IMG/VR virus record: IMGVR_UViG_3300020440_000010
Coordinates: 18,573-82,572 of that record
From: a virus
Lineage: Duplodnaviria > Caudoviricetes
Strand: one strand, 5' to 3'
Length of the DNA stretch: 64,000 nucleotides
The notes beneath the pieces were generated by a model, which saw only the letters and a list, made by a program, of their open reading frames with translations, did not search any database and was not told the DNA's origin. How positions within the stretch are numbered: position 1 is the first letter of the stretch; each line of letters starts with the position of its first letter. This document shows positions 3 to 14,197 of the stretch, one piece after another. The translations under genes and the position numbers were made by a program.

Positions 3-293
3 AATTTTGGAGATTACAAAAGCGTTCACTCACATGATAAGATTGATGCTTTTGGAATTTTCTATGTTGATGTGGGTACAGAAACATCAGGCGGACATTT
101 AAAATTATATGATCCTAGATGGCAGAATCAAAAATCATTTGTAGGATCCAAACCATACATGGAAATAGTTCCCAAGAAAGGATTGCTAATTGCCGCTCCT
201 CATTATGTTTGGCACGAAGTCACTCCGTATGTTGGGGACTTGACAAGATTAAGTTTAGTGTGTAATATGCAGTTTAACGAAATAGTAGAATGA
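3..293 (+). CDS. 2OG-Fe(II) oxygenase-like protein, 5'-truncated by window edge
   Basis: Frame open from position 3: VHSHD ... FYVDVG ... LYDPR ... PHYVWHEV ... RLSLVCN, the HxH...H...R pattern of phage DSBH oxygenases. Confidence 0.7.
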   Translation, partial: NFGDYKSVHSHDKIDAFGIFYVDVGTETSGGHLKLYDPRWQNQKSFVGSKPYMEIVPKKGLLIAAPHYVWHEVTPYVGDLTRLSLVCNMQFNEIVE

Positions 294-1291
294 TAGAACA
301 CAACATTATTACAAAAACTAACAAACGAAGTATCCTTGGCGAGATCATTGTGACTCTGTTTGAGCAGTGTAATATGAGTTGTAAATTTTGTAATCAAGAT
401 CATAACAGCAAAGTAGGAATGGATACTATCAAAGACAAGTTACCGGTAGTAAAACGTGCAATAGAAAACATGAGCAAAACTAGAGAAATGTTTAGTGTGC
501 ATTTTATGGGCGGTGAAGTGTTTAGTGATTTAGTACCTGACAGTTGTTTTGATGATTACAAATATCTAGCAGACGAACTAGAAGCATGGAGTAAAGAAAA
601 CAACTACGATGTAGAAATATGCTTTACTACAAACTTTGTATATGAACAAACACATAGACTACAAAAACTACTAGACCAATGTCCACAGGTAAAATTGTTA
701 ACCAGTTACGATCCTAGTGGACGTTTTGGCCTAGGTCAATTAAATGTATTTAAAAAGAATGTAATAGCATTTGAAAAGTATATTAAGAGTGCAAATGTAA
801 TAATGACTAAACCTAATATAGATAAGTTCTTAAAAGGCAATACACCTTTCTTTGATTATCTCTATGATAGGTATGACATTTATTTTGATTATTACACACC
901 AGAAAAGAATAGAAAGTTGATGACTCCTAATGATGTTCAATTGCGTGACTTTATGATTTATATGTTTGACAACTATCCTAACTGTTTGCCATTCAAAGAT
1001 TATCCTAGTAAAATTAAAAAACGTATGACTTGCCAAGATACATTTACAATAATGCCAAGTGGCGATGCAGGCGGCTGTACTATTTTGTTATCACAAGATT
1101 TATCAGGGTACAAACCAACCAAAGAAGAAATGGAACAAAAATGGTTTGACGATTATAATTGTTTAGAATGTCCACACTTTCAGAGATGTTCAATGGGTTG
1201 TTTTTTAAGCAATCATCTAAAAAGTTTTAGAACACAGGAAGTGTGTTGGTTATCGGAGGTTTACGATTATGTTGATTCAAAAGAAGTTTGA
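290..1291 (+). CDS. Radical SAM protein with C-terminal Cys-rich (SPASM/twitch-like) region
   Basis: CNMSCKFC (CxxxCxxC), GGE motif (FMGGEVF), C-terminal CLECPHFQRCSMGC. Confidence 0.9.
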   Translation: MIEHNIITKTNKRSILGEIIVTLFEQCNMSCKFCNQDHNSKVGMDTIKDKLPVVKRAIENMSKTREMFSVHFMGGEVFSDLVPDSCFDDYKYLADELEAWSKENNYDVEICFTTNFVYEQTHRLQKLLDQCPQVKLLTSYDPSGRFGLGQLNVFKKNVIAFEKYIKSANVIMTKPNIDKFLKGNTPFFDYLYDRYDIYFDYYTPEKNRKLMTPNDVQLRDFMIYMFDNYPNCLPFKDYPSKIKKRMTCQDTFTIMPSGDAGGCTILLSQDLSGYKPTKEEMEQKWFDDYNCLECPHFQRCSMGCFLSNHLKSFRTQEVCWLSEVYDYVDSKEV

Positions 1292-1922
1292 TGCTAATAA
1301 TTTTTACAAGCATGGTTTTGATGTTGTTGAAATGCCAAAACAATTATCTACTTTACTGTGGGCACAGATATCTTTAGAAGATTGGAACCCCCACGGAGTA
1401 TATAAAAATGTTCCGTCATGGAGCATGAATAATGATATGGTAGTGGGTAGTGTTGACAGAAAGTATGATAGAAACAAAGAACAAGAAATGTGTAAAGAAA
1501 GTTTAGATAGAGTTCCGCTTATATACAAAGATACACTTACTGCTCTTTTTAACGAAGAATATTATAGAAACTGGTTTGTAAAAACTTGTGGGTACAATTG
1601 GGAAATGCGTTTTATTGATTTATGGAATGGCAGTGACAGTTTAGACTGGCATTGGGACGGAGTAGAAGACCATGACATTGGATTTTTAATTTACTTTACA
1701 GAAGAGCCTACATGGAACGAAGAGTGGGGAAGTGTGTTGAAAGTAGGAGAAAGAGATTGGCCAGATACTAATGTACAAAATGTTAGGAAAATTATTCCTT
1801 TAAATGGAACGGTGGTATTACTAAACAACATGAATCCTAGATTTGTTCATAGTGTAGATACACTGGTTGACACAACTAAAAATAGATATACAATAAATTG
1901 TGGAATAAGTTTATGGAATTAA
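1269..1922 (+). CDS. 2OG-Fe(II) oxygenase
   Basis: WHWDG (HxD) ... FVHSV ... RYTI; paralogous to the next two oxygenases. Confidence 0.85.
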   Translation: MLIQKKFDANNFYKHGFDVVEMPKQLSTLLWAQISLEDWNPHGVYKNVPSWSMNNDMVVGSVDRKYDRNKEQEMCKESLDRVPLIYKDTLTALFNEEYYRNWFVKTCGYNWEMRFIDLWNGSDSLDWHWDGVEDHDIGFLIYFTEEPTWNEEWGSVLKVGERDWPDTNVQNVRKIIPLNGTVVLLNNMNPRFVHSVDTLVDTTKNRYTINCGISLWN

Positions 1923-2533
1923 ATGTAGATAAATTTTGGACAGACGGGTATGATGTAACTACTCTTGATGATGAAAAGTATTCAATGTTGTGGAGTTTGA
2001 TACACAATGAGACTTGGGTAGATGGTATATTTCCTATTCAAAAGGTTGCTAGTTGGAGTAATACTACAAAAGAAAATTTAAAAGATAGAGTAGAAGATAT
2101 ATCCCCTAATTTAACAATGTGGAATGTGCCTGTAGAATACGATCAAATAATGAACGATATATGGAAAAGCGATTACTATCAAAAATTCTTTAGAGACTAT
2201 GCTAAAAAAGTAGGAAAGATAGAATATATTGATGTGTGGAATAAAACACCAGCACATGAATGGCACAGTCATACTCCTGATAATGTAGATTTAGTATTGT
2301 TAGTTTATCTAAATGAACAAGAGCAATGGAAACGTGAATGGGGCGGAGTACTGCAAGTAGGTACGAAAACAATTGAAACCAACGAAGTAGGAAACGTACA
2401 TTCTATTTTGCCAAACAATAAAACAGTAGTGCTTATCAATAATATCAACCCAAGAATTTTTCATAGTGTTACAGAACAAATATCTGAAAACAATAGATAT
2501 ACAATTGGAGCAGGAATTAAGTTATGGAACTAA
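1913..2533 (+). CDS. 2OG-Fe(II) oxygenase (HxH variant)
   Basis: WHSH ... IFHSV ... RYTI; ATG at 1913 preferred over the track's TTG at 1898. Confidence 0.8.
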   Translation: MELNVDKFWTDGYDVTTLDDEKYSMLWSLIHNETWVDGIFPIQKVASWSNTTKENLKDRVEDISPNLTMWNVPVEYDQIMNDIWKSDYYQKFFRDYAKKVGKIEYIDVWNKTPAHEWHSHTPDNVDLVLLVYLNEQEQWKREWGGVLQVGTKTIETNEVGNVHSILPNNKTVVLINNINPRIFHSVTEQISENNRYTIGAGIKLWN

Positions 2534-3630
2534 TTATAAAACCCACAGAATTGTGCAACTTTAAATGTACCTTTTGTTCTAGTACAAAGATTGCAGAGCA
2601 TGGTAAAGTAGTTTTAGACCATGAACACATTTTTAGATTCTTAAAAAGATATCCTAATACAAATACAATTATTGTTAATGGTGGTGACCCGTTGATGATG
2701 GATCCTGATTACTATTGGAAAATTATAGACTATCTTGACGAACACGAGATGTCAACAAGTATTGCGTTGACTACTAACCTTTGGCCTTTTTACAAGAAGC
2801 CTAGCAAATGGAAAGCATTGTTCAACAATGAAAGGATAGGCGTTACAACCAGTTTCAATTACGGTGATGGTAGATTAAAAGGAGACTTTAGTTTATTCAC
2901 AGTAGAAGACTTTTGGCGTGTAAGTGATGCTATGTTAGAACACTGTAACTATCGACCAGACTTTATTGCAGTTGTTACAGACAGCAATGATCACCTTGCT
3001 ATGAAAAATGTAGAACTTGCTGTTGAAATGAGTGACGGCGTAGAACCCGGCGGTACATTACATAACTTTGCTCGTAACAATAAAACTGGTGTTGAATGCA
3101 AATTAAATTATGCAATGAGCAGTGGAGAACAAGATAGACCATATCTACTATCCAAGATTTACAAAACTTATGTAGATATATGGGAAGCAGGATTGGCTCC
3201 ATGGGAGTTCAATACAAAACAAATGATGAAGCGTTTGAAAGGAAACGCTACCTCTTGTCCACAGAACAGACGCTGTGACGAAGGAATTAGAAGTATGAAT
3301 CCTGGCGGAGACTATTATAGTTGTGGTGCATTTGGTGATGATATGGAGAAACCAATAGATTTTGAAAAAGAAATGAATGGGGATTTCTTTACACCATTAC
3401 AGGATAGTTTTGAACTTGCAAGTATGAAAAAATCATGTTATACTTGTCCTATGTTTGAAATATGCAATGGTTGTAGAAAAACAGTTAAGGATTTCAAAAG
3501 ACACAAAGTTGTTGAAGCACACTGTAAAATAATGAAGACTGTTGCACCCAAAATACTAAAAGCAAACGGTTTGGAGGGAGTAGAAGTTACTCCGTATGTA
3601 AATGAAACTATTGAAACAAGACAAGCCTAA
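2524..3630 (+). CDS. Radical SAM/SPASM-domain protein
   Basis: CNFKCTFC, NGGDPL, C-terminal CPQNRRC...YSCG...CYTCPMFEICNGC. Confidence 0.92.
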   Translation: MELIIKPTELCNFKCTFCSSTKIAEHGKVVLDHEHIFRFLKRYPNTNTIIVNGGDPLMMDPDYYWKIIDYLDEHEMSTSIALTTNLWPFYKKPSKWKALFNNERIGVTTSFNYGDGRLKGDFSLFTVEDFWRVSDAMLEHCNYRPDFIAVVTDSNDHLAMKNVELAVEMSDGVEPGGTLHNFARNNKTGVECKLNYAMSSGEQDRPYLLSKIYKTYVDIWEAGLAPWEFNTKQMMKRLKGNATSCPQNRRCDEGIRSMNPGGDYYSCGAFGDDMEKPIDFEKEMNGDFFTPLQDSFELASMKKSCYTCPMFEICNGCRKTVKDFKRHKVVEAHCKIMKTVAPKILKANGLEGVEVTPYVNETIETRQA

Positions 3631-4354
3631 TATTAGAAGTTATTATGGTGATGGATATGATATTGTAGATGTTGATCTAAGTGTGATTGATCATCTTGGT
3701 TCTTATATACTACAGGAAAATTTTAGTGACAGTCCTCTACATCCAGGTATATCACAACCGGATTGGGACGCAGACTATACTAATATTACCAAAGAGTTTT
3801 ATGAAGCACAACAAAAGTATATTGATATACTTAAACCTTTGGTTGAAAAAGAAAACTATTTTGATTACTGGCGTACATTACGAGGACCATTTGATGAACT
3901 TATTGTAAGCATCAACAAAATGGATAAAGGTAGTAAGATGGATTGGCATTGGGACGGTTTTGATGGTAGTATGTTACAATTGATGTTGTATGTAAACTTA
4001 GAAGAAAGAACACGAGAAGATGGAGGATTTTTAGAAGTAGGTGTATCGTATGAACCTATGATAAACCAAGATGATCCTTTCCCACACTGGTCGCCTGAAA
4101 CAGGCTTAAACAAAGTTACTGGGCACGTGATGTCTAAGTGCAGTTATGTACCTAAGAATGATAAAGCAATTATATTAAACAATGATAATCCTTTGTATGT
4201 TCATAGAGTAACAGAATGCAAAACTGACAAACCTAGGTACAGTGTATTATTACAATGCGGATATAAAACACTTTGGGACGGAAACTCACTAAAGAACAAC
4301 GGTGGACAATATAAAGATCCACGTACAGGAATGATTACAAAATTAAACCTATGA
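3602..4354 (+). CDS. 2OG-Fe(II) oxygenase
   Basis: WHWDG ... YVHRV ... RYSV. Confidence 0.85.
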   Translation: MKLLKQDKPNIRSYYGDGYDIVDVDLSVIDHLGSYILQENFSDSPLHPGISQPDWDADYTNITKEFYEAQQKYIDILKPLVEKENYFDYWRTLRGPFDELIVSINKMDKGSKMDWHWDGFDGSMLQLMLYVNLEERTREDGGFLEVGVSYEPMINQDDPFPHWSPETGLNKVTGHVMSKCSYVPKNDKAIILNNDNPLYVHRVTECKTDKPRYSVLLQCGYKTLWDGNSLKNNGGQYKDPRTGMITKLNL

Positions 4355-4911
4355 AGAACAAACAATTTTCAAATGGCAGAATTCACGGATCAAGATTTGA
4401 AGAAGCAGTATATCATGACGGATATCTTGCATTTTCTGTAAGTCCTTTTGATCAAGACTTTGAAAATGAAATAGAGGATGGTGTACTACCTCATGTGAAA
4501 GTGTTGACTACTAAAGGCTATTGTCCTATCAGCAGTTGTCATGGTCATTACGAACACGGTAAATGGATGCCTTGGTATGTGATGATAGCACTAGGGGACA
4601 ATGCCGTGAAACAAAAACAAATAATACTAGATGCAATTAAAAACATACCAGGAATATATACTGAAACAAGAAAGCAAAGTGCTAATGTTATTAATGGTAA
4701 AACTGTATTTGACAAAGTTGATCTGGATAAAGAATATGAAGAATTGAATAAAATGTTTTTACGCAAAAACACAACTTGGGAATATTTGTATATCAGTTTG
4801 TTTCAACACAGAACAATTTACAATAAAATTGCAAAACTATTATTTTTTACACACAGTAAAAATAAATTATTTTATGCTTTAGAAAGATTACCAGATGAAC
4901 ATATCAATTAA
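4351..4911 (+). CDS. Hypothetical protein (PISSCHGH motif)
   Basis: 186-aa ORF coupled to neighbours (ATGA overlap); possible metal-binding SSCxGH motif. Confidence 0.6.
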   Translation: MKNKQFSNGRIHGSRFEEAVYHDGYLAFSVSPFDQDFENEIEDGVLPHVKVLTTKGYCPISSCHGHYEHGKWMPWYVMIALGDNAVKQKQIILDAIKNIPGIYTETRKQSANVINGKTVFDKVDLDKEYEELNKMFLRKNTTWEYLYISLFQHRTIYNKIAKLLFFTHSKNKLFYALERLPDEHIN

Positions 4912-5809
4912 TCCTAGTTATTTTTGTAATTTTCGTTGTGACTTCTGTTATCTAACGCCCGAGCAACTTGCAGATCAAAAGAAAATAGATTTGCAAAGAT
5001 TAGATGATATGTTAGCAGAAGTAAAAGAACAAGATGATATTCATCATATTGATTTATATGGAGGAGAGATAGGAGCATTAAAGAAAGATTACTTCTATGG
5101 TTTACGTGATGTAATAAGAAAATACTATGACAAGGACATTAATATAAACACAAACTTTTCTATGCTACACGATGGCTTCTTTGAAAAAGACTTTTACTTG
5201 AGTGTAAGTTATGACTTTGAAGCAAGAGAGAAGCATGAATTAGTATACAAAAACATGATGTTGTCACCAGTGCCTATCGCAGTATTAGTATTGGTATCTC
5301 CAACTATTTTACAAAAAGATGTAGATGAAATGATTAGAATGTTTAACCTTTGTACTCCTGTAAAAAGTGTAGAGTTAAAACCATATAGTATTAATCAAGC
5401 CAATGCTCATAATGTAACACACAAAGACTTTGAGCAACACGTAATTAAATGGATACAATCAAAAGAAGATATGCAATTTGCATTTATAAACGATTACAAG
5501 ATACAAGACAGTATTGAAAAAACTTACAATGCATTTAGTAACGATCATGTATATATTACTCCTAATGGTAAGTTTGGAGTACTGGAGTTTGACAAAGATG
5601 ACAAAGAATATTTTTTAGAACTAGACAGTTATAAAGATTACAAACTATGGGCAGACAAAGAGCCAGACGTTAATTGTAGTGATATCTGTAAGTCATGCAA
5701 ATACTATGGACACTGCCTAACAGAACACTATAGATACGTTAAGGATCTAGACAACGGATGTAACGGATATAAAGGACTATTAGAATTTTATGAAAGACTG
5801 GAAAGTTAG
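4895..5809 (+). CDS. Radical SAM protein with C-terminal Cys cluster
   Basis: CNFRCDFC, YGGEIG, C-terminal CSDICKSCKYYGHC...GCNG. Confidence 0.9.
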   Translation: MNISINPSYFCNFRCDFCYLTPEQLADQKKIDLQRLDDMLAEVKEQDDIHHIDLYGGEIGALKKDYFYGLRDVIRKYYDKDININTNFSMLHDGFFEKDFYLSVSYDFEAREKHELVYKNMMLSPVPIAVLVLVSPTILQKDVDEMIRMFNLCTPVKSVELKPYSINQANAHNVTHKDFEQHVIKWIQSKEDMQFAFINDYKIQDSIEKTYNAFSNDHVYITPNGKFGVLEFDKDDKEYFLELDSYKDYKLWADKEPDVNCSDICKSCKYYGHCLTEHYRYVKDLDNGCNGYKGLLEFYERLES

Positions 5810-6197
5810 ACAAGAAATATATCATAGGTTGAATAGCGATCACTCTGATGATTTAAACAGAGTAGAAATACAAGAGTGTCCTGATAGTCAATTACTTGAT
5901 TACGCAATCGAATATTTTACCAACGACAAACTAGGTTGGGTCTATCCTGCTAAGAGTTATGTAGTTGGAATTTGCTATGCACTCTGGTTGACCAAAGACT
6001 TTGGAGGCGGGTTCTATGAATATCTAAATGATCCTGAATTGCTGTATGGAAATGATCCCTATTTTGTTCCTTATGACAAAGATCAACAAACGTACGATAA
6101 TATTATCAACAGTGTAGGATTTGGATTCGATCAACGTCTTGGAGTCATACCTGATATACGCCATTACTATGAAGAGGAGTTTATGCTTAATGATTGA
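5790..6197 (+). CDS. Hypothetical protein, probable partner of the upstream radical SAM
   Basis: Overlaps rSAM stop; YPAKSYVVGICYA...NDPYFVPY. Confidence 0.6.
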   Translation: MKDWKVRQEIYHRLNSDHSDDLNRVEIQECPDSQLLDYAIEYFTNDKLGWVYPAKSYVVGICYALWLTKDFGGGFYEYLNDPELLYGNDPYFVPYDKDQQTYDNIINSVGFGFDQRLGVIPDIRHYYEEEFMLND

Positions 6198-6795
6198 AAC
6201 TAAAATAAGCAGTGATGGTGCCAACGAAGTTTTTATTAAGGCATCTGATCCACAAGCACTAGAGTATAAGTCTATGGTCCTAGCAGTTTGGCCTAACACA
6301 AATTTACAAGGATTACAAATGATTAGTTTTGACAAAACAAAAAACAAAGTCAATCTAACATTTGATGTGTATCCTAGTGAAGAGATCAAAAAAGAATTTG
6401 CTGTGGCAGACTATCATCAGTTCTGTGATTACTATGCTGTCGAATGTTTTATAGATTTACAATGGCGTGTACTAAAAGTATATGATCAAAATTTACCAAT
6501 GCACCCTTTACCTAGTTTACCAAAAGGAAGTAGGATAGATGTATTGAAAAGCGGAGTAGGTGTTTATTATGGTCGCAACGTAGAAGATTATAGAAAAGTT
6601 TATTTTCTACATGACGATATTGATTATGTAAAAGAGTTTTTCAATGATCTACAGTTACCAATTATTGTAAAGAAATACAAGTATGCAATATTTGGTTTGG
6701 AGTACAATGTTAAGACAATGAAATTACATCACATTTCGTACTATGATATACAGGATAAGGATAATATATATAGTAAGGATAGTTTAAAACAATGA
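6190..6795 (+). CDS. Hypothetical protein
   Basis: ATG at 6190 overlaps the upstream TAA, suggesting translational coupling. Confidence 0.6.
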   Translation: MIETKISSDGANEVFIKASDPQALEYKSMVLAVWPNTNLQGLQMISFDKTKNKVNLTFDVYPSEEIKKEFAVADYHQFCDYYAVECFIDLQWRVLKVYDQNLPMHPLPSLPKGSRIDVLKSGVGVYYGRNVEDYRKVYFLHDDIDYVKEFFNDLQLPIIVKKYKYAIFGLEYNVKTMKLHHISYYDIQDKDNIYSKDSLKQ

Positions 6796-7367
6796 CAACA
6801 GCAAATAAAAGAATAGCAGTAGTTGGAGCACACGGAGTAGGTAAAAATACAGTCTGTATAAAATTGTTGCAAAGAGAAAAGTTTGGACAACGCGGGATCA
6901 ATGTAACATATATGCCTGAAACTGTGAGAAGCACAATGTTTATGAATCATGATATACTTGCCAATGAAATAGGCGGCGACATCAACAGTTGTGCCTGGTT
7001 GTATCATAGACACTGGAGCCAAATGCTAGAACATGAATACAGTTGCGAAGTGTTTATTACAAAAAGATTACCATTAGACTATGTTGTATTCAACGAATGT
7101 GCATACGTAATGAAGATGTGCAAAGAAACACTACCTTTTCAGTATTTAGAATTAGCAGTTGAACAAGCAAAACAGTTTCATGAAGTTTATTTTGTAAGAC
7201 ATAATCCTGATCATGATTTGATTACAGATAGCATTAGACAGGGTCCAGCGGCTAGTGAAGAACTTCAACCTTTGTGGGACACAAACTACAAAAGAATAAT
7301 AGACGAATACGAAGTTCCTGTAATTGAAGGTACAGCAGGCGAACTACTAGAAAAGATTAAAGTATGA
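6792..7367 (+). CDS. P-loop nucleotide/NMP-kinase-like protein (AAA_28/NadR-like)
   Basis: IAVVGAHGVGKNT Walker A near the N-terminus; D..R lid-like segment. Confidence 0.7.
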   Translation: MTTANKRIAVVGAHGVGKNTVCIKLLQREKFGQRGINVTYMPETVRSTMFMNHDILANEIGGDINSCAWLYHRHWSQMLEHEYSCEVFITKRLPLDYVVFNECAYVMKMCKETLPFQYLELAVEQAKQFHEVYFVRHNPDHDLITDSIRQGPAASEELQPLWDTNYKRIIDEYEVPVIEGTAGELLEKIKV

Positions 7368-8656
7368 ATATAGTTATTGTTGGAGGCGGCACTGCCGGTT
7401 GGCTCACTGCTCTTTCACTACATAAGAAACATGATGTAACCTTAATAGAAAGTGAAATACCTACAATAGGAGTAGGTGAAAGCACAACTGACACTGTCAT
7501 ACGTTGGCTAAAGCAACGTGTGGATATGAAAGAATTTCACACAAAAACAAATAGCACATTTAAATTAGGTGTGCAGTTTGATAATTGGGTAAACAAAAAT
7601 GAAACTTACTATCATTTGTTTGGTGATGTAGAAGACAAAGTACCTAATGGAAAATTTAACCAAGTGGTAAGATACTGTTTTCAGAATGGTATAAACTTAG
7701 ATAATTTAAGTATATTTGACAAATGTAAAGAAGAAGATATGACTTGGGATAGTGTTGCTACCCATTGGGACAGTGTTGCAGTACCGGCCTATCTAAGACA
7801 AAAACTAGAACACAAAATATTAATAGTAAATGATACAGTCGAAAAGGTCCATTACGAAAACGAGTCTATTACAAAACTACAATTAGTCAATAGTACTGTT
7901 GAAGCAGATTTATATATAGACTGTACAGGATTTCATAGAGTTCTAACTAAAAATACAAATAATAAATGGATTGATTGGAACGCAAAAGGTCAAGTAGATC
8001 GTGCCCTAGTATGGCAAATGCCACACAAAGATACTATACCAACTTTTACTCAAGCAGAAGCATGGGACTATGGTTGGAGATGGAAAATACCTACCACTGA
8101 TCGACTGGGAAATGGTTACGTGTTTGACAGTGACTTTATAAGTGTAGAAGATGCAGAAAAAGAAATTAGAAAAAGAGTTGATTACAAAGGTCCTGTTAGA
8201 CTTATAGAATTTAATCCCGGAAGGATTGAACAAGTATATTATAAAAATATAGTAAGTTTAGGATTAAGTTCTCATTTTCTTGAACCACTTGAAGCAACAA
8301 ACTTTGATTTTTTAGTATATAATTTACAAAACTTAGATCTTGTTATAGAAGACAAAATAAATGTAGAACAATTTAATAAAAATGCAAACAGACTTGCTGA
8401 ATCTATTAGAGAATTTGTCAAAATGCATTACATAAACAACACAAACAATACTGCATTTTGGAAAGCACAAAACAAAAATCTGTGCGGAAATGCTATTAGG
8501 GTTATTGAAAATGCAGAAACCACTAATAACCTTGCACCAGGTGGATTATTTACAGATTACAATTGGTACAAAGTTGCTCAAGGTGTTGGCATAAAGAGTA
8601 AAAGCAAAAATGATGATGCTGAATTACTAGCATTATTCCAATTAGCATCCATCTAA
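7364..8656 (+). CDS. Tryptophan-halogenase-like flavin-dependent enzyme
   Basis: GGGTAGW (GxGxxG), IGVGEST, STFKLGVQF (catalytic Lys position), YIDCTGF, WRWKIP (WxWxIP), FLEPLEAT. Confidence 0.88.
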   Translation: MNIVIVGGGTAGWLTALSLHKKHDVTLIESEIPTIGVGESTTDTVIRWLKQRVDMKEFHTKTNSTFKLGVQFDNWVNKNETYYHLFGDVEDKVPNGKFNQVVRYCFQNGINLDNLSIFDKCKEEDMTWDSVATHWDSVAVPAYLRQKLEHKILIVNDTVEKVHYENESITKLQLVNSTVEADLYIDCTGFHRVLTKNTNNKWIDWNAKGQVDRALVWQMPHKDTIPTFTQAEAWDYGWRWKIPTTDRLGNGYVFDSDFISVEDAEKEIRKRVDYKGPVRLIEFNPGRIEQVYYKNIVSLGLSSHFLEPLEATNFDFLVYNLQNLDLVIEDKINVEQFNKNANRLAESIREFVKMHYINNTNNTAFWKAQNKNLCGNAIRVIENAETTNNLAPGGLFTDYNWYKVAQGVGIKSKSKNDDAELLALFQLASI

Positions 8657-8680
8657 AACAAATACAGATTAAATATTGCT

Positions 8681-9364
8681 ATGTTTAATCCGTTCAAAAT
8701 AAATCCAAATGCAGATGTGCAAAAAATTGATTTGCCATACTTCGAAAAATACTATTGGCAAATAGATGACTTCTATACAGATCCAAAAGCAGTTAATACT
8801 TTTTTAGATACAGAGTGTGAATACAAATTATTCAAGGAAGACGAACCAGGACTAAATGGTGTTAAGTTTGAAGACAAAAGACACGAAGGACATCACAAAG
8901 GCCTAGAAGCCGTAACTTTTGCTCTAATGGAAGTTTGTAAAGCAAACAAATGTAGAGACGAAGAAGATCTAATTATTACCAATACATTCAAAGTATTAGA
9001 TCCTGATTGGGGTAAACAATATAAAGATAACTGGTGGTGGCCTCATTTAGATTGGGGTTGGACTGCATTGATATATCTCAATGAAGAACCATGTGAAGGA
9101 ACAAACTTATATCACAAACCAGGTATGCCCAAAAACGCAGTACATGATGGTATAGATAAACTTATTAGACAAGGAGCCGCAAAACATAATGAATATGTAG
9201 ATCCTTGGACTACACGGGATAATTGGATACTAGGAGCAAATATTCCTAGCAAATTTAATAGAGCAATAATATTTCCAAGTAAAATATATCACGGTATGGC
9301 TATTGAAAGTGATCGTTGGACCAACGACACACGTAGAAATCAAGTAGTATTTTTTGAATATTAA
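8681..9364 (+). CDS. 2OG-Fe(II) oxygenase-like protein (DUF6445-like)
   Basis: IDDFY.DP, PHLD...LIYLN...GTNLY...FNRAIIF...YHG. Confidence 0.7.
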   Translation: MFNPFKINPNADVQKIDLPYFEKYYWQIDDFYTDPKAVNTFLDTECEYKLFKEDEPGLNGVKFEDKRHEGHHKGLEAVTFALMEVCKANKCRDEEDLIITNTFKVLDPDWGKQYKDNWWWPHLDWGWTALIYLNEEPCEGTNLYHKPGMPKNAVHDGIDKLIRQGAAKHNEYVDPWTTRDNWILGANIPSKFNRAIIFPSKIYHGMAIESDRWTNDTRRNQVVFFEY

Positions 9365-9400
9365 AAAAGGGCGATAGTTTCCTACCGCCCAGTTTTGTTT
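9363..9400. terminator. Bidirectional intrinsic terminator between convergent genes
   Basis: A6-GGGCGATAG-tttc-CTACCGCCC-agttttgttt. Confidence 0.75.
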
Positions 9401-9404
9401 ATTA

Positions 9405-9716
9405 TTATTTTTTTGAATTGTTTATAAAGTTGTAAAACTTTTCAGCAGTTTCTAATACATCATCAACTCCAGGAATATCTGGCATACCGACTTTGTTTAC
9501 GATCTCACCAGTCTTCTCATCACGAGCGGATGTAATTTCCCAACCATTCCATTTGCTTGAATATTCAAACTCCTTGAATTGTTTTGCCATGTCTAATACA
9601 TTGGTACGGATTTCGTAACCATTTTTATTAAACTGTACTTTGGGTAGTGTTTCACGCACTGATTGTGCTAGTTGTTCGGCACCTTTTTCGATACCTTCTT
9701 TAAACGTCTTGTTCAT
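9405..9716 (-). CDS. Hypothetical protein
   Basis: 103 aa, strong SD (AAGGAG), own promoter. Confidence 0.75.
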   Translation of the reverse strand: MNKTFKEGIEKGAEQLAQSVRETLPKVQFNKNGYEIRTNVLDMAKQFKEFEYSSKWNGWEITSARDEKTGEIVNKVGMPDIPGVDDVLETAEKFYNFINNSKK

Positions 9717-11666: not shown

Positions 11667-11854
11667 TGAAAACTTATACTTTAGAATTTGTGTTGTTTGG
11701 CTGGTTGGCTTATAACATAGCAATAGAAATAGTAAGTTGGTTTGAGCCAGAAGATGAACTACAAGCACCTACGCCTGTGGAAATGTCTCCTGCACAGCAA
11801 ATACTAGAAGGTGGTACTGACTATCCTATTACTGAGGAAAACTCCACAAGTTAA
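11660..11854 (+). CDS. Small membrane protein
   Basis: N-terminal hydrophobic segment. Confidence 0.55.
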   Translation: MLMKTYTLEFVLFGWLAYNIAIEIVSWFEPEDELQAPTPVEMSPAQQILEGGTDYPITEENSTS

Positions 11855-12654
11855 ATCTGTGGAGTTTCTAAACCGTCAACTAACTTTTTGATGTGTGTCA
11901 CATAGTCACCTATGTTATGATCAGTAAAGTTATCTATCTTACCTTTTTTCAACCCACGCCACATACCACGGAATCTGTCTTTGATTCTTTGGTATCCGGT
12001 TGGATTACGTTTGTTACCCCAAGTATTTAGATAATGTTCTGTGCCGTGATGTCGATATCCCATTATCCATAACGGCACTCTACATACTATATCATTATTG
12101 TTTACCCATCTGTGATGTGTGATACCAAGGCTACTTACATATCCTGGCCAACCCACTCTTGGCGAGCCATATGTGTAAAGTTCCTTAGGATCTAGTGTAT
12201 CTAAATGTAACAAACATCTCGAAGCCATTATAGTTGCCATTGCCGCTCCTAATGAGTGTCCACAAAACCAAAGGTCTTTTTTAGCATTTACAGATCTAAA
12301 TAAATCTTCAGTGATTGATGGCCAAAGTTCATCTACTTCTGTTTTAAATCCTGCATGGACTCTGCTTACAGTCTCAGCAATTACAGGCAGTGCATTTGCA
12401 TCTGCTTGAATGTCATTGTATTCTGTTGGTTGTGTTCCTCTACAAGCAATTACTATATCATTTTTGTTCATGAATCTGTAACTCTGAGCACCTTTGTTAT
12501 CGTAATACTCAACTGTGGTAAAGCCTAACAGTCTTGCTTGTTTGTGTGCTTTATCCTCTTTTAGGTATGATATCATACTCAATTCAGCAAAAAGCAAACT
12601 TCTTTCTTCGAAAGATAGTTCTACTATTGGTTTTTTTAACTTTGCACTATACAT
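11851..12654 (-). CDS. Lipase class 3 family alpha/beta hydrolase
   Basis: CGHSLGAAMA (GxSxG), YTYGSPRVG, RWVNNNDIVCRVP, C-terminal DH. Confidence 0.88.
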   Translation of the reverse strand: MYSAKLKKPIVELSFEERSLLFAELSMISYLKEDKAHKQARLLGFTTVEYYDNKGAQSYRFMNKNDIVIACRGTQPTEYNDIQADANALPVIAETVSRVHAGFKTEVDELWPSITEDLFRSVNAKKDLWFCGHSLGAAMATIMASRCLLHLDTLDPKELYTYGSPRVGWPGYVSSLGITHHRWVNNNDIVCRVPLWIMGYRHHGTEHYLNTWGNKRNPTGYQRIKDRFRGMWRGLKKGKIDNFTDHNIGDYVTHIKKLVDGLETPQI

Positions 12655-12720: not shown

Positions 12721-12981
12721 ATGAAACGCACAACACGAAGTATATTACAAGAATTACATGATATTCAGGCCAAACCCGAGCCTGAAAATGTGGTTGACAG
12801 CAGAGCAGTTCATGTTATAGAATCAGCAATAAATGTTATTGCTATGATGCATGAAAACTTTGATAATGCTACTGCTAATGATTTGGAGAAGAGATTCATC
12901 AACAGTATAAAAAGTGGTGATCCACAGAAATTTGCTCGTGGCATTAAAAATATAAAAAAGGGCAAACCAGATGCAATTTAA
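12721..12981 (+). CDS. Hypothetical late protein
   Basis: ATAAATA at 12698 and GAGG SD. Confidence 0.7.
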   Translation: MKRTTRSILQELHDIQAKPEPENVVDSRAVHVIESAINVIAMMHENFDNATANDLEKRFINSIKSGDPQKFARGIKNIKKGKPDAI

Positions 12982-14197
12982 AGAACTAATAGCAGAAGAA
13001 GCCAAACAAAATAAACACCTAGAACACATCGAAGAAGAAATTCTCAATAGAGGATCTGCCGGTGCTGAAGATACAATGAATACTTTGATGCGTTTTTCAG
13101 ATATGCTAAAAGGTAGATCCAATAAAAAATTAAAAGTTACAGTTAAATGGGACGGTGCACCTGCAATAGTGTGTGGTACTGATCCGCAAACAAAAAAATT
13201 TTTCGTAAGCACAAAAGGAGCATTTGCTAACAAACCTAAATTAGCATTTACACAAGAAGATATAGAAAGTATCTTTCCAGACTACCTATGGGATAAATTA
13301 GGTCCATGTTTAGAACACTTATCTAAGTTAGGCATCAAAGGCGTTGTACAAGGCGATCTTATGTTTAATGAAGAAATGAAAAAAGAAACAGAAATAGATG
13401 GCAAACAGTACGTGGTATTCAAACCACAAAAAATTACATACGCATTTCCAATAGACAGTGAAGTAGGCAGACGTATAGTCAACGCAAAGTTAGGAATTAT
13501 TTTTCATACAAATTATACAGGCGATGCTATGAATGACATGGAGGCAGATTTTAACGTAGATGTTTCAGGTTTTAAAAACAACAAAGATGTTTGGTTTGAC
13601 GATGCAACATTTAAAGATGTGACTGGCAGTGTCTTACTTACAAAAAGTGAACAAGTTCAAGTGAAACAAGATTTGGCTGACGCAATGGCGGCCTATAAGG
13701 CTGTACCAAGCGACTTATTAGAAGCAGTAAAAAACAATAAAGATTTCGTGGTGTACTGGAAACGTACAGTTAACGATTATGTAAGGGCAAACAAACTACC
13801 TGGGGATCCTGATCAGTTCTTAAACGATTTCATCGATGTGTATAAGAATGTTATTCAGAAAGGAATTGCTGGATTAAAAAATCAGGATCCTGCCGCCCCT
13901 GCTGTAAAATCTAGAATGGACAAACTTGAAACACAAGTAAACCTAGTCAACGCAAATAGAAAAGGCCTAGCAAACATTATTAGATTTATGAAAGAAGTTT
14001 CTAATATTAAGTTGATGTTTATTAGAAAACTTAATAATATTGAAAGTGTAGCACAGTTCTACCAAGAGCCAGATGGATCATATACTGCGGCTAATCCAGA
14101 AGGATATGTTGCTGTTGATCATATAGGAAATGCTGTTAAATTTGTAGATAGATTAGAATTTAGCAGACGTAACTTTGGTGAAAAGGACTTTGGCTAA
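12971..14197 (+). CDS. DUF6267-like protein with ligase-type nucleotidyltransferase motifs
   Basis: KHLEHIEE, TVKWDGAP (KxDG), VQGDLM, PEGYV, KFVDR; conserved family in large marine T4-like phages. Confidence 0.65.
   Translation: MQFKELIAEEAKQNKHLEHIEEEILNRGSAGAEDTMNTLMRFSDMLKGRSNKKLKVTVKWDGAPAIVCGTDPQTKKFFVSTKGAFANKPKLAFTQEDIESIFPDYLWDKLGPCLEHLSKLGIKGVVQGDLMFNEEMKKETEIDGKQYVVFKPQKITYAFPIDSEVGRRIVNAKLGIIFHTNYTGDAMNDMEADFNVDVSGFKNNKDVWFDDATFKDVTGSVLLTKSEQVQVKQDLADAMAAYKAVPSDLLEAVKNNKDFVVYWKRTVNDYVRANKLPGDPDQFLNDFIDVYKNVIQKGIAGLKNQDPAAPAVKSRMDKLETQVNLVNANRKGLANIIRFMKEVSNIKLMFIRKLNNIESVAQFYQEPDGSYTAANPEGYVAVDHIGNAVKFVDRLEFSRRNFGEKDFG

Follow-up and report, generated by a model that had tools for sequence, protein, structure and literature searches.

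What does the dense run of tailoring genes on the viral contig IMGVR_UViG_3300020440_000010 (Duplodnaviria; Caudoviricetes) modify? We analyzed a window of 64,000 nucleotides (nt), bases 18573-82572 of this 82.6-kb IMG/VR contig, together with the 18.5 kb upstream of it (L006; an L006 coordinate is the window coordinate plus 18572). An initial annotation of the window had described positions 3-9364 as a coupled operon of radical S-adenosylmethionine (rSAM) enzymes, 2-oxoglutarate (2OG) oxygenases, a kinase and a halogenase-like enzyme; it had seen no substrate there and had suggested that one may lie upstream. The window indeed holds none, and we found a candidate upstream, conserved across related loci: the gene at L006 15910-16467, encoding a protein of about 185 residues (termed the tail protein) whose C-terminal end is a Cys-His tail, VTICHSSCHSNCHASRGRR. 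We propose, at a probability of roughly 55%, that four rSAM enzymes mature this Cys-His end and that the tail protein is incorporated into the virion.

An IMG/VR search with the upstream 185-amino-acid (aa) protein as query returned 121 loci, of which 80 were retained; together with three contigs from metagenome-assembled genomes (MAGs) and four lineages of isolated phages, they form the set of 87 related loci used below. Gene content was compared through the annotated neighborhoods of the isolates and all-against-all BLAST, and protein identity across the 87 loci was 28 to 92%. The two closest relatives are L012 and L013, and no near-identical DNA was found in isolated phages. All 87 loci share a fixed order, namely, cupin, rSAM-A, tail protein, P2, (P3), rSAM-B, rSAM-C, rSAM-D, and a 135-aa protein, where P2 and P3 denote the two genes that follow the tail gene. 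On our contig, this core set is arranged as follows.

L006 14316-14834, plus strand: cupin Fe(II) oxygenase
L006 14804-15910, plus strand: rSAM-A, a fourth rSAM enzyme, upstream of the window
L006 15910-16467, plus strand: tail protein, 185 aa, 2.1 kb before window base 1
L006 16440-17201, plus strand: P2, non-enzymatic-looking
L006 17185-18276, plus strand: P3, non-enzymatic-looking
Window 290-1291, plus strand: rSAM-B, with CxxxCxxC and a 7-Cys SPASM-type C-terminus; phrog_1802, 5e-37
Window 2524-3630, plus strand: rSAM-C, of all enzymes in the set the most conserved, with a C-terminus of the SPASM type; passes Pfam Radical_SAM
Window 4895-5809, plus strand: rSAM-D, with a shorter auxiliary motif, CX2CX5CX3H...C; passes Pfam Radical_SAM
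Window 5790-6197, plus strand: 135-aa protein following rSAM-D, function unknown; phrog_20737, 5e-48

The gene at the P3 position encodes 345 to 405 aa, and a 2OG-FeII_Oxy_5 gene usually lies near the core set. Among isolates, the set is present in the Agrobacterium phage Atu_ph07, the Sinorhizobium phage Phosso, the Ralstonia/Burkholderia RSL2/RSF1/FLC/S13 group and the Pseudomonas phage pPa_SNUABM_DT01. ATGA and TAATG overlaps join rSAM-A, the tail gene and P2, indicating translational coupling. The homologues are thus not shuffled independently of one another, since both the order and the candidate substrate are kept in every locus, and we consider it very likely that the whole core set, from the cupin and the tail protein to the four rSAMs, P2, P3 and the 135-aa protein, is one functional unit.

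We then analyzed the tail protein. Its last 16 residues follow the consensus CHxSCHxxCHxSRGRR, and this ending is shared by RSF1 ORF071, Atu_ph07 gp170, Phosso 289 and DT01_00065, the bodies of which are very different. CH at three positions and the final RxRR occur in 119 of 120 database homologues and in 88/88 loci, each with a single tail-bearing gene. Across these 88 loci, the tail is encoded by 74 distinct 51-nt versions that use both Cys codons, both His codons, and AGY as well as TCN Ser codons, which argues that selection acts on the peptide and not on the DNA. The body of the protein is free of Cys in most members (100/113). An AlphaFold2 (AF2) model combines a confident alpha/beta body (predicted local distance difference test [pLDDT] score of 88) with a disordered tail (pLDDT 47 to 63), so the tail is predicted to be accessible.

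Fold searches with the body gave no convincing match: Foldseek against the PDB yielded only E values of >0.2, and the best VIA-align hit among ∼48,000 chains had a Z score of 3.8 (root mean square deviation [rmsd], 5.5; 129 residues aligned). A BFVD search with the tail protein returned uncharacterized family members only; three proteins of Myoviridae sp. ctijX18 (A0A8S5USJ7, A0A8S5USJ8 and A0A8S5USV2; 504 to 660 aa, uncharacterized) share the body fold, with Foldseek E values of 1e-4 to 3e-3. A 16-residue tail of the identical type also closes longer, unrelated bodies, those of P0249 (with an N-terminal Gly_rich_2 domain), P0258 and P0262, for which no related loci were found in IMG/VR. Being found on unrelated bodies, the tail behaves like a portable tag.

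The radical SAM enzymes were examined next to their candidate substrate. CxxxCxxC, the radical SAM superfamily motif that binds the SAM-cleaving [4Fe-4S] cluster close to the N-terminus of a partial TIM barrel, is invariant in all four groups; rSAM-A (29.0 bits) and rSAM-B (19.7 bits) score below the Pfam Radical_SAM cut-off of 29.5. The C-termini of the window enzymes read CX2CX5CX2-3C, which is SPASM-like, or CX2CX5CX3H in rSAM-D. rSAM-A has CX2CX5CX3C and four further invariant Cys; in rSAM-B, the invariant Cys of the C-terminus number exactly seven (C248, C263, C291, C294, C300, C304 and C319); rSAM-C has CX2CX5CX2C plus other Cys; and the invariant residues of rSAM-D (C265, C268, C274, H278 and C289) form a twitch-like set. 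The SPASM/twitch subfamily is marked by a 7-Cys motif at the C-terminus, CX9-15GX4C...CX2CX5CX3C...C, for two auxiliary clusters, or by a partial (twitch) version of it. By these motifs, groups A, B and C carry full SPASM-type Cys sets and group D a shorter, twitch-like one, which assigns all four to the predicted SPASM/twitch class. The NCBIfam SPASM domain TIGR04085 gave 21.9 bits with rSAM-C (cut-off, 27), and rSAM-A aligned to the SPASM region of anSME with an E value of 7e-7.

Each rSAM is a separate orthologous group, with 37 to 65% identity across phages. Orthologues of rSAM-B were found in 78/87 loci (among isolates, Atu_ph07 gp168, RSF1 ORF075 and DT01_00062) and are 50 to 57% identical to the window copy where 2OG genes of the DG[YF]D type flank them and ∼30% identical elsewhere. 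rSAM-C is 51 to 65% identical to its isolate counterparts (Phosso, Atu_ph07 gp165, RSF1 ORF079 and DT01_00060); it has matches in 15 isolate records, all from jumbo phages of 222 to 490 kb, and its homologues fill 1379 protein clusters (90% identity) at E values of ≤1e-10. For rSAM-D, the corresponding figures are 69/87 loci and 43 to 52% identity in isolates. Profile comparison identified the four groups as distant paralogues (hhalign probability, 95.6 to 96.5%; E values of ∼1e-8 to 1e-9), nearer to each other than to any solved structure or curated family. That the window rSAMs are recent copies of one another is ruled out, as they represent three of four old orthologous groups with a fixed order. 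Further rSAM genes occur in two isolates: six consecutive ones, two beyond the core four, in pPa_SNUABM_DT01 (L007 11274-14234), and an additional rSAM-B paralogue 5 kb downstream in Phosso (L008 16487-17404).

Comparison with characterized enzymes was less informative. PDB sequence and profile searches with the four rSAMs returned only weak matches to the N-terminal core or the SPASM region, and all matches to curated NCBIfam maturase families were far below the cut-offs. The enzymes are not members of the anSME family (TIGR03942, 43.5 bits versus a cut-off of 349), and the anSME target motif, (C/S)xPxR or CxAxR, is not kept, since the last tail repeat is CHASR here and CH[GSND]SR elsewhere.

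The remaining core members gave few functional clues. The cupin has the invariant residues H101, D103, H141 and K116, with an HxD...H arrangement and weak similarity to MINA53 and JMJD5. The 135-aa protein, with 21 invariant residues, is present in 65/87 loci and is found in Phosso, DT01, RSF1 and Bdellovibrionota. For P2, no convincing fold match was obtained (Foldseek against the PDB, E > 0.2; VIA-align against ∼48,000 chains, best Z score of 4.8 and rmsd of 2.5 over 52 aligned residues, confined to the N-terminal 55 residues), and a search of the ESM Atlas for look-alikes of the tail protein and the 135-aa protein gave no usable match.

Proteomic data exist for one homologue of the tail protein. 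The virion proteome of Atu_ph07, obtained by electrospray ionization tandem mass spectrometry (Table S5 of that study), includes gp170 at 31.89 kDa with 8 unique peptides and 35% coverage (PMC6102473). The identification is secure, since the mass that we computed from the record translation is also 31.89 kDa. gp170 was detected in gel bands 1 to 9 and was most abundant in band 1, which is the peak of proteins of 75 to 139 kDa; other proteins of ∼30 kDa peak in band 8 (PMC6102473). Boiled in sodium dodecyl sulfate (SDS), gp170 thus migrates at several times the mass of its monomer. The Atu_ph07 virion list contains neither the P2 homologue nor the cupin nor any of the three rSAMs (PMC6102473). 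This pattern is in keeping with maturation of a structural protein by the enzyme set, and it fits covalent cross-linking or a very stable oligomer.

The initial annotation had considered the pathway to be phage encoded, a view that proved too narrow. A protein-based scan of 185,579 species genomes recovered three MAG contigs only; a scan with the back-translated tail yielded 47 stretches, with ∼0.1 expected by chance if an even base composition is assumed. About 40 of the 47 are real tails at the ends of open reading frames (ORFs), mostly in Bdellovibrionota and on contigs that include some of 1.29, 2.45 and 2.84 Mb. The tail gene of these loci is accompanied by P2, rSAM-A to -D, the 135-aa protein and, in some cases, a 224-aa protein (see below), in shuffled order and orientation; some loci have a tandem pair of tail-bearing paralogues, or four CH repeats. 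An rSAM-C orthologue (47 to 60% identity) was found in 5/5 individually tested genomes and in 11/301 sampled genomes of the phylum. One Halobacteriovoraceae chromosome has the system flanked by housekeeping genes and a Peptidase_S74 fiber-chaperone protein, and another genome has it flanked by a 2355-aa RCC1/Big_2 surface-type protein. These chromosomal loci rule out a phage-only system; apart from giant phages, some predatory bacteria have it, as an accessory system on the chromosome.

The Peptidase_S74 protein (endosialidase/tail-fiber intramolecular chaperone; 413 aa; L139 6768-8006, minus strand) is two genes from rSAM-D. Four repeats, CHxSCHSSCHGSCHGSRGRR, occur in two Bacteriovoracia MAGs (L121 1383-1433 and L129 714-764), so repeat number can vary. 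A Rhodobacteraceae bin, "Water_Bin34", contains tandem pairs of 125- to 140-aa proteins with the same CH tail on a different body (L109, L119 and L136); no rSAM homologue was found within these 8-kb loci, which may be phage contigs in the bin or a split arrangement.

We propose the following model. Window 3-6197 would be the distal part of a conserved maturation system, the proximal part of which lies just upstream. The four SPASM/twitch-type rSAMs, aided by the cupin, 2OG oxygenases, P2 and P3, would act on the disordered CHxSCHxxCHxSRGRR segment, most likely by introducing radical cross-links at the three Cys (thioethers of the sactionine or ranthionine type) and/or at neighboring His and Ser. 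The cross-linked tail would form a rigid, perhaps metal-binding, knot, and the matured protein would then be built into the virion. Candidate chemistries include Cys thioethers, His-centered cyclophane-type links (in view of the H-x-S/N spacing), Cys oxidation, and a cupin-catalyzed hydroxylation of His or Arg.

We infer that the tail is probably the substrate of the rSAM set, and several observations argue for it: SPASM enzymes mostly act on peptides or proteins; the tail is the sole segment that is invariant, Cys bearing and disordered; it is portable between bodies; the tail protein is inside the virion and the enzymes are outside; and there is a precedent of SPASM-installed thioethers on an adjacent full-size protein (PMC13692751). 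As for the possible targets listed by the initial annotation (a peptide, a virion protein or nucleic acid), the protein-modifying kind of the SPASM rSAMs and the gp170 proteomics support a phage-encoded pathway with a virion protein as candidate; modification of nucleic acid found no support.

Several points weigh against this model. The rSAMs are so far below every curated maturase cut-off that they receive no family name and no transferable chemistry. No recognition element of systems for peptides made by ribosomes and modified after translation (RiPP systems) was found in any rSAM, P2 or the 135-aa protein, and a PqqD/RiPP recognition element (RRE) search of P2, P3 and the 135-aa protein returned nothing even at E values of ≤10. 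The Ser at position +3 from each Cys is close to fixed but not invariant (A or N in 5/120 members), which weakens a model of Cys/His-to-Ser cross-links. Four rSAMs for three Cys is an unexplained count, and neither P2 nor the body of the tail protein matched solved folds. The migration of gp170 can also be obtained from an SDS-stable fiber-like oligomer, and Cys-His pairs four residues apart could bind metal unmodified.

These last two points lead to the best of the alternatives, which we nevertheless regard as unlikely: the Cys-His tail would itself be a metal or iron-sulfur site, belonging to a metal-tipped fiber- or spike-like virion protein or to an electron or cluster carrier for the rSAMs, and the rSAMs would act elsewhere, for instance on P3, another virion protein or a small molecule. 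The three Cys and three His, at i, i+4 and i+8, would align on one face of a helix and provide six ligands per layer in a trimer; AF2 places a short helix at residues 180 to 183. His-based metal sites are known at the tips of phage fibers and spikes (gp37 of phage T4 and gpV of phage P2), stable fiber trimers typically show a high apparent mass in SDS gels, and the Peptidase_S74 protein adjoins the system in one Bdellovibrionota chromosome. This explanation, however, does not account for four SPASM rSAMs, the cupin, P2 and the 135-aa protein being kept adjacent even where the order is shuffled, nor for the occurrence of the tail on unrelated bodies, in the manner of a portable tag for recognition or modification. 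The electron carrier version is further opposed by the presence of the tail protein in virions, from which the enzymes are absent.

A second alternative arises from the accessory genes, which are interspersed with the core set or follow it in the window.

3-293, plus strand: 2OG-Fe(II) oxygenase, C-terminal half of a 185-aa gene (L006 18308-18865) between P3 and rSAM-B; Pfam 2OG-FeII_Oxy_5, 34 bits (cut-off, 27)
1269-1922, plus strand: 2OG paralogue 1, DG[YF]D/NNxNP type; Pfam 2OG-FeII_Oxy_4, 1e-8
1898-2533, plus strand: 2OG paralogue 2, start probably ATG 1913, 33% identical to 1269-1922; Pfam 2OG-FeII_Oxy_4, 1e-7
3602-4354, plus strand: 2OG paralogue 3, BLASTP 2e-10 to the other paralogues; Pfam 2OG-FeII_Oxy_3, 26.6 bits (cut-off, 27)
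4351-4911, plus strand: 186-aa protein, sporadic, with homologues at the same position in 12/87 loci
6121-6795, plus strand: 224-aa protein, extended member of the system, start probably 6169 or 6190
6792-7367, plus strand: P-loop NTPase, kinase-like, Walker A GAHGVGKNT; lineage specific, found only in L012 and L013
7364-8656, plus strand: flavin-dependent halogenase, short form of 430 aa, lineage specific; Pfam Trp_halogenase PF04820, 7e-87, 292 bits
8681-9364, plus strand: DUF6445 protein, last gene, with HxD...H; Pfam DUF6445, 28 bits (cut-off, 24)

Most of what the initial annotation had read in this stretch was borne out. The 13 plus-strand ORFs that fill positions 3-9364 form a tightly overlapping run, and three of them (290-1291, 2524-3630 and 4895-5809) are CxxxCxxC enzymes with Cys-rich C-termini. 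Five 2OG-type oxygenases are recognizable by Pfam and motifs, namely, the three paralogues, the gene at 3-293 and the DUF6445 gene at 8681-9364. The paralogues share the motifs D/H-G-Y/F-D and NNxNPxxxHxV (as well as HWDG...HSV) and match each other in BLASTP at 1e-10 to 7e-34, and the halogenase-like enzyme with WxWxIP belongs to the Trp_halogenase family. The predicted kinase is a Walker A P-loop protein, and its family matches are all below threshold (AAA_28, E of 0.003 and 18 bits with a cut-off of 27; thymidylate kinase phrog_2107, E of 4e-4); a PDB search gave no match below an E value of 0.4.

The 2OG and cupin genes carry the HxD/E...H facial triad and, judged by this motif, are predicted Fe(II) oxygenases; the DUF6445 protein is likely a double-stranded beta-helix oxygenase, and it has no homologue in the 87 loci. 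Genes similar to the oxygenase at 3-293 are present in 15/87 loci. Paralogue 1 flanks rSAM-B in ∼17 metagenomic loci and has no homologue in isolated phages. The 186-aa protein has no Pfam, PHROG or NCBIfam match. The 224-aa protein also lacks a family match; homologues of it were found in L012, in L013 and, among Bdellovibrionota, next to the system (L139, 30% identity, E of 6e-12; L099, L104 and L112).

Flavin-dependent halogenases are marked by a GxGxxG site for flavin adenine dinucleotide, WxWxIP, a catalytic Lys (PrnA K79) and a Glu (E346). In the product of 7364-8656, GGGTAG, the Lys of TFKLG, GWRWKIP and FLEPLE align with the motifs of PDB 9luq, which assigns it to the flavin halogenases; PDB matches had E values of 6e-50 and weaker. 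With 430 aa, it is ∼100 residues shorter than solved Trp halogenases (500 to 550 aa). Its phage relatives are cyanophage and pelagiphage genes (30 to 34% identity) from genomes that are not among the holders of the rSAM set. Two tandem Trp-halogenase-family genes at L006 9222-12378 (523 and 532 aa) are 53% identical to each other and ∼30% identical to the 430-aa copy, with no flavin reductase seen nearby. A conserved Trp of the tail protein was considered as the halogenase target and rejected, as Trp is absent from some members, e.g., L009.

The second alternative holds that a small molecule or a nucleic acid base is what the enzymes make or tailor (a halogenated, hydroxylated secondary metabolite or a DNA hypermodification that uses the P-loop kinase) and that the tail protein is unrelated cargo. 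The halogenase family is common to cyanophages and pelagiphages, and a halogenated metabolite has been proposed for their halogenase/2OG islands (PMC7824862). A kinase-like P-loop gene and an ATP-dependent DNA ligase gene lie inside the run, and pathways of thymidine hypermodification use rSAM enzymes and kinases (PMC8989533). However, the halogenases, the P-loop protein, the ligase and most 2OG genes are found only in L012 and L013 and are missing from 85/87 loci and from every isolate relative. They therefore cannot be what defines the conserved system or, as the initial annotation had it, belong to the same conserved pathway. Moreover, all four rSAMs have SPASM/twitch-type motifs, mostly the marks of peptide or protein maturases, and no conserved nucleotide-handling, glycosyl, carrier-protein or transporter gene accompanies them. 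For the system as a whole, we consider this explanation quite improbable. On the basis of their distribution, we treat 6792-9364 and the upstream halogenases and 2OG genes as a putative lineage-specific island fused to the core operon, and for the accessory genes 6792-9364 alone, a small molecule or modified base is a possible product, at less than even odds.

A route to a cofactor, in which the tail would be cross-linked, cut off and trimmed and the 170-aa body discarded as a leader, has a parallel in PqqE and MftC (SPASM rSAMs whose targets are residues at the C-terminus of a precursor, for pyrroloquinoline quinone and mycofactocin) and in the portability of the tail, yet it is very improbable, given that no protease or peptidase is conserved in the system (87 loci), that the body, unlike a leader, is well folded with a conserved N-terminus and is present in virions at 35% coverage, and that no NCBIfam score reaches the PqqE or MftC level.

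Maturation of the Cys-His tail by four rSAMs, our preferred explanation, can also be compared with known systems. CrpC of Methanococcus voltae is a SPASM rSAM that installs ranthionine thioethers on CrpA, a full-size Cys-rich protein encoded adjacent to it (PMC13692751). Both systems place a SPASM-type rSAM beside a folded protein, in contrast to a short peptide, whose Cys residues are the shown or proposed targets, and in both, adjacency of the genes revealed the pairing. They differ in that ours has four rSAMs together with 2OG oxygenases and a cupin, a C-terminal Cys-His repeat of 16 residues as target in place of a Cys-rich body, no RRE found, jumbo phage and Bdellovibrionota hosts, and a virion protein as product.

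In quinohemoprotein amine dehydrogenase, the gamma subunit QhpC is cross-linked at Cys by the SPASM rSAM QhpD, together with the flavoprotein QhpG. There, too, the target is a protein subunit and a flavoenzyme of the halogenase/monooxygenase fold is involved; the scores are low (rSAM-B with the QhpD family TIGR03906, E of 7e-4 and 18 bits versus a cut-off of 453; halogenase N-terminus with QhpG, 32 versus 240). In contrast to Qhp, the tail has no Trp or Asp/Glu partner, there is no QhpE-type protease, and the flavoenzymes keep the halogenase Lys and WxWxIP and are lineage specific.

Short repeated Cys motifs also adjoin SPASM rSAMs in sactipeptide and ranthipeptide systems (PapB/freyrasin with CxxxD, CteB, SCIFF). 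Matches of our enzymes to PapB, RumMC and GggB in NCBIfam are weak, at less than 1/10 of the cut-offs, and here the precursor is a 185-aa folded virion protein with four enzymes, a CHxS motif and no leader/RRE logic seen. The His-Xaa-Ser repeat system HxsABCD, reportedly described by Haft and Basu in 2011 and said to be uncharacterized, pairs SPASM rSAMs with a His/Ser-rich repeat peptide. rSAM-C matches HxsC at 1e-6, but with 27 bits versus a cut-off of 268, and the repeats here differ in having invariant Cys, in number (three, or four in some Bdellovibrionota) and in their C-terminal position on a folded protein. Finally, the halogenase at 7364-8656 matches VirX1 (PDB 6qgm) at 3e-36 and, like the VirX1-class islands of cyanophages and pelagiphages, sits among many 2OG genes in a marine phage; those halogenase phages were not found among the holders of the four-rSAM set or the tail protein, whereas here the island is merged into the same run. 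Classical RiPP pathways use a short leader-core precursor that is recognized by an RRE (PqqD-like) domain and from which a protease removes the leader. With a 185-aa folded protein as candidate substrate and rSAMs that begin directly with the cluster motif, the system departs from this definition, and although it works in the manner of a RiPP system, we do not classify it as one.

A SPASM rSAM acting on a neighboring protein is thus a known kind of system; the four-enzyme architecture, the Cys-His tag and the virion/predator setting are new. Our literature search found gene lists only, with no functional study of the system and no description of it or of the tail motif; the papers on isolated phages label the gene products cupin, 2OG, radical SAM or Fe-S oxidoreductase proteins, and the roles offered there are speculative. 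To our knowledge, radical SAM/SPASM maturases come almost only from peptide natural products, with a few cofactor and enzyme-subunit cases. A protein substrate of a SPASM maturase has been demonstrated experimentally only very recently, and the present system is abundant, strictly syntenic and apparently directed at a component of the virus particle. Since phages of Agrobacterium, Sinorhizobium, Ralstonia, Burkholderia and Pseudomonas that can be cultivated carry it, a new post-translational chemistry and a new layer of virion assembly become testable. Many "auxiliary metabolic" rSAM and 2OG genes of marine giant phages would be, at least in part, maturases of structural proteins. The Bdellovibrionota link hints at a shared tool against bacterial envelopes, and we tentatively suggest, as a rather doubtful extension, that jumbo phages and predatory Bdellovibrionota share a dedicated four-rSAM machine that builds a cross-linked, possibly metal-binding Cys-His knot at the C-terminus of proteins displayed by the attacking particle or cell. 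In that case, no earlier virion protein matured by radical SAM enzymes would be known, as far as the literature found goes, and the 16-residue tail would be a portable tag for maturation that viruses exchange with bacteria preying on Gram-negative cells.

We finally looked into the boundaries of the gene run. Starting with 3-293/290, successive junctions overlap by 4, 23, 25, 10, 29, 4, 17, 20, 77, 4 and 4 nt. Reading two TTG-started ORFs from inner ATGs brings the overlaps to 4 to 29 nt at 10 of the 12 junctions, as the 25 nt become 10 nt with ATG 1913 and the 77 nt become 29 or 8 nt with ATG 6169 or 6190; the sole gap, of 24 nt, precedes 8681. The run continues upstream of the window, by about 14 kb. 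Over ∼19 kb, from about L006 8929 to window 9364, it has 29 plus-strand genes and gaps of ≤31 nt, and positions 3-9364 are only its tail end. Its upstream part comprises the two tandem halogenases, three 2OG oxygenases, the cupin, the fourth rSAM, three proteins without family match and the 2OG gene cut by the window edge. Farther upstream are three additional 2OG genes and the ATP-dependent DNA ligase gene (L006 6929-8257), which lies amid the oxygenase and halogenase genes, shares their strand and has start and stop overlaps like theirs. At the other end, one further feature was noted.

9369-9390, no strand assigned: GC-rich hairpin with a 9-bp stem, 6 GC pairs and a T-run on the minus strand

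Promoter and terminator scans gave counts at the shuffle level, and this hairpin alone stood out. Lying between the run and a convergent gene, it is likely a terminator. The convergent ORF (9405-9716, minus strand) encodes 103 aa, the last 15 of which weakly match "gene 1 ring forming protein" (23 bits; cut-off, 22.6). Beyond it are a class-3 lipase gene (11851-12654, minus strand; Pfam Lipase_3, 2e-19) and a gene for a DUF6267/phrog_455 protein (12971-14197, plus strand; 6e-99), a large conserved phage family of unknown function.

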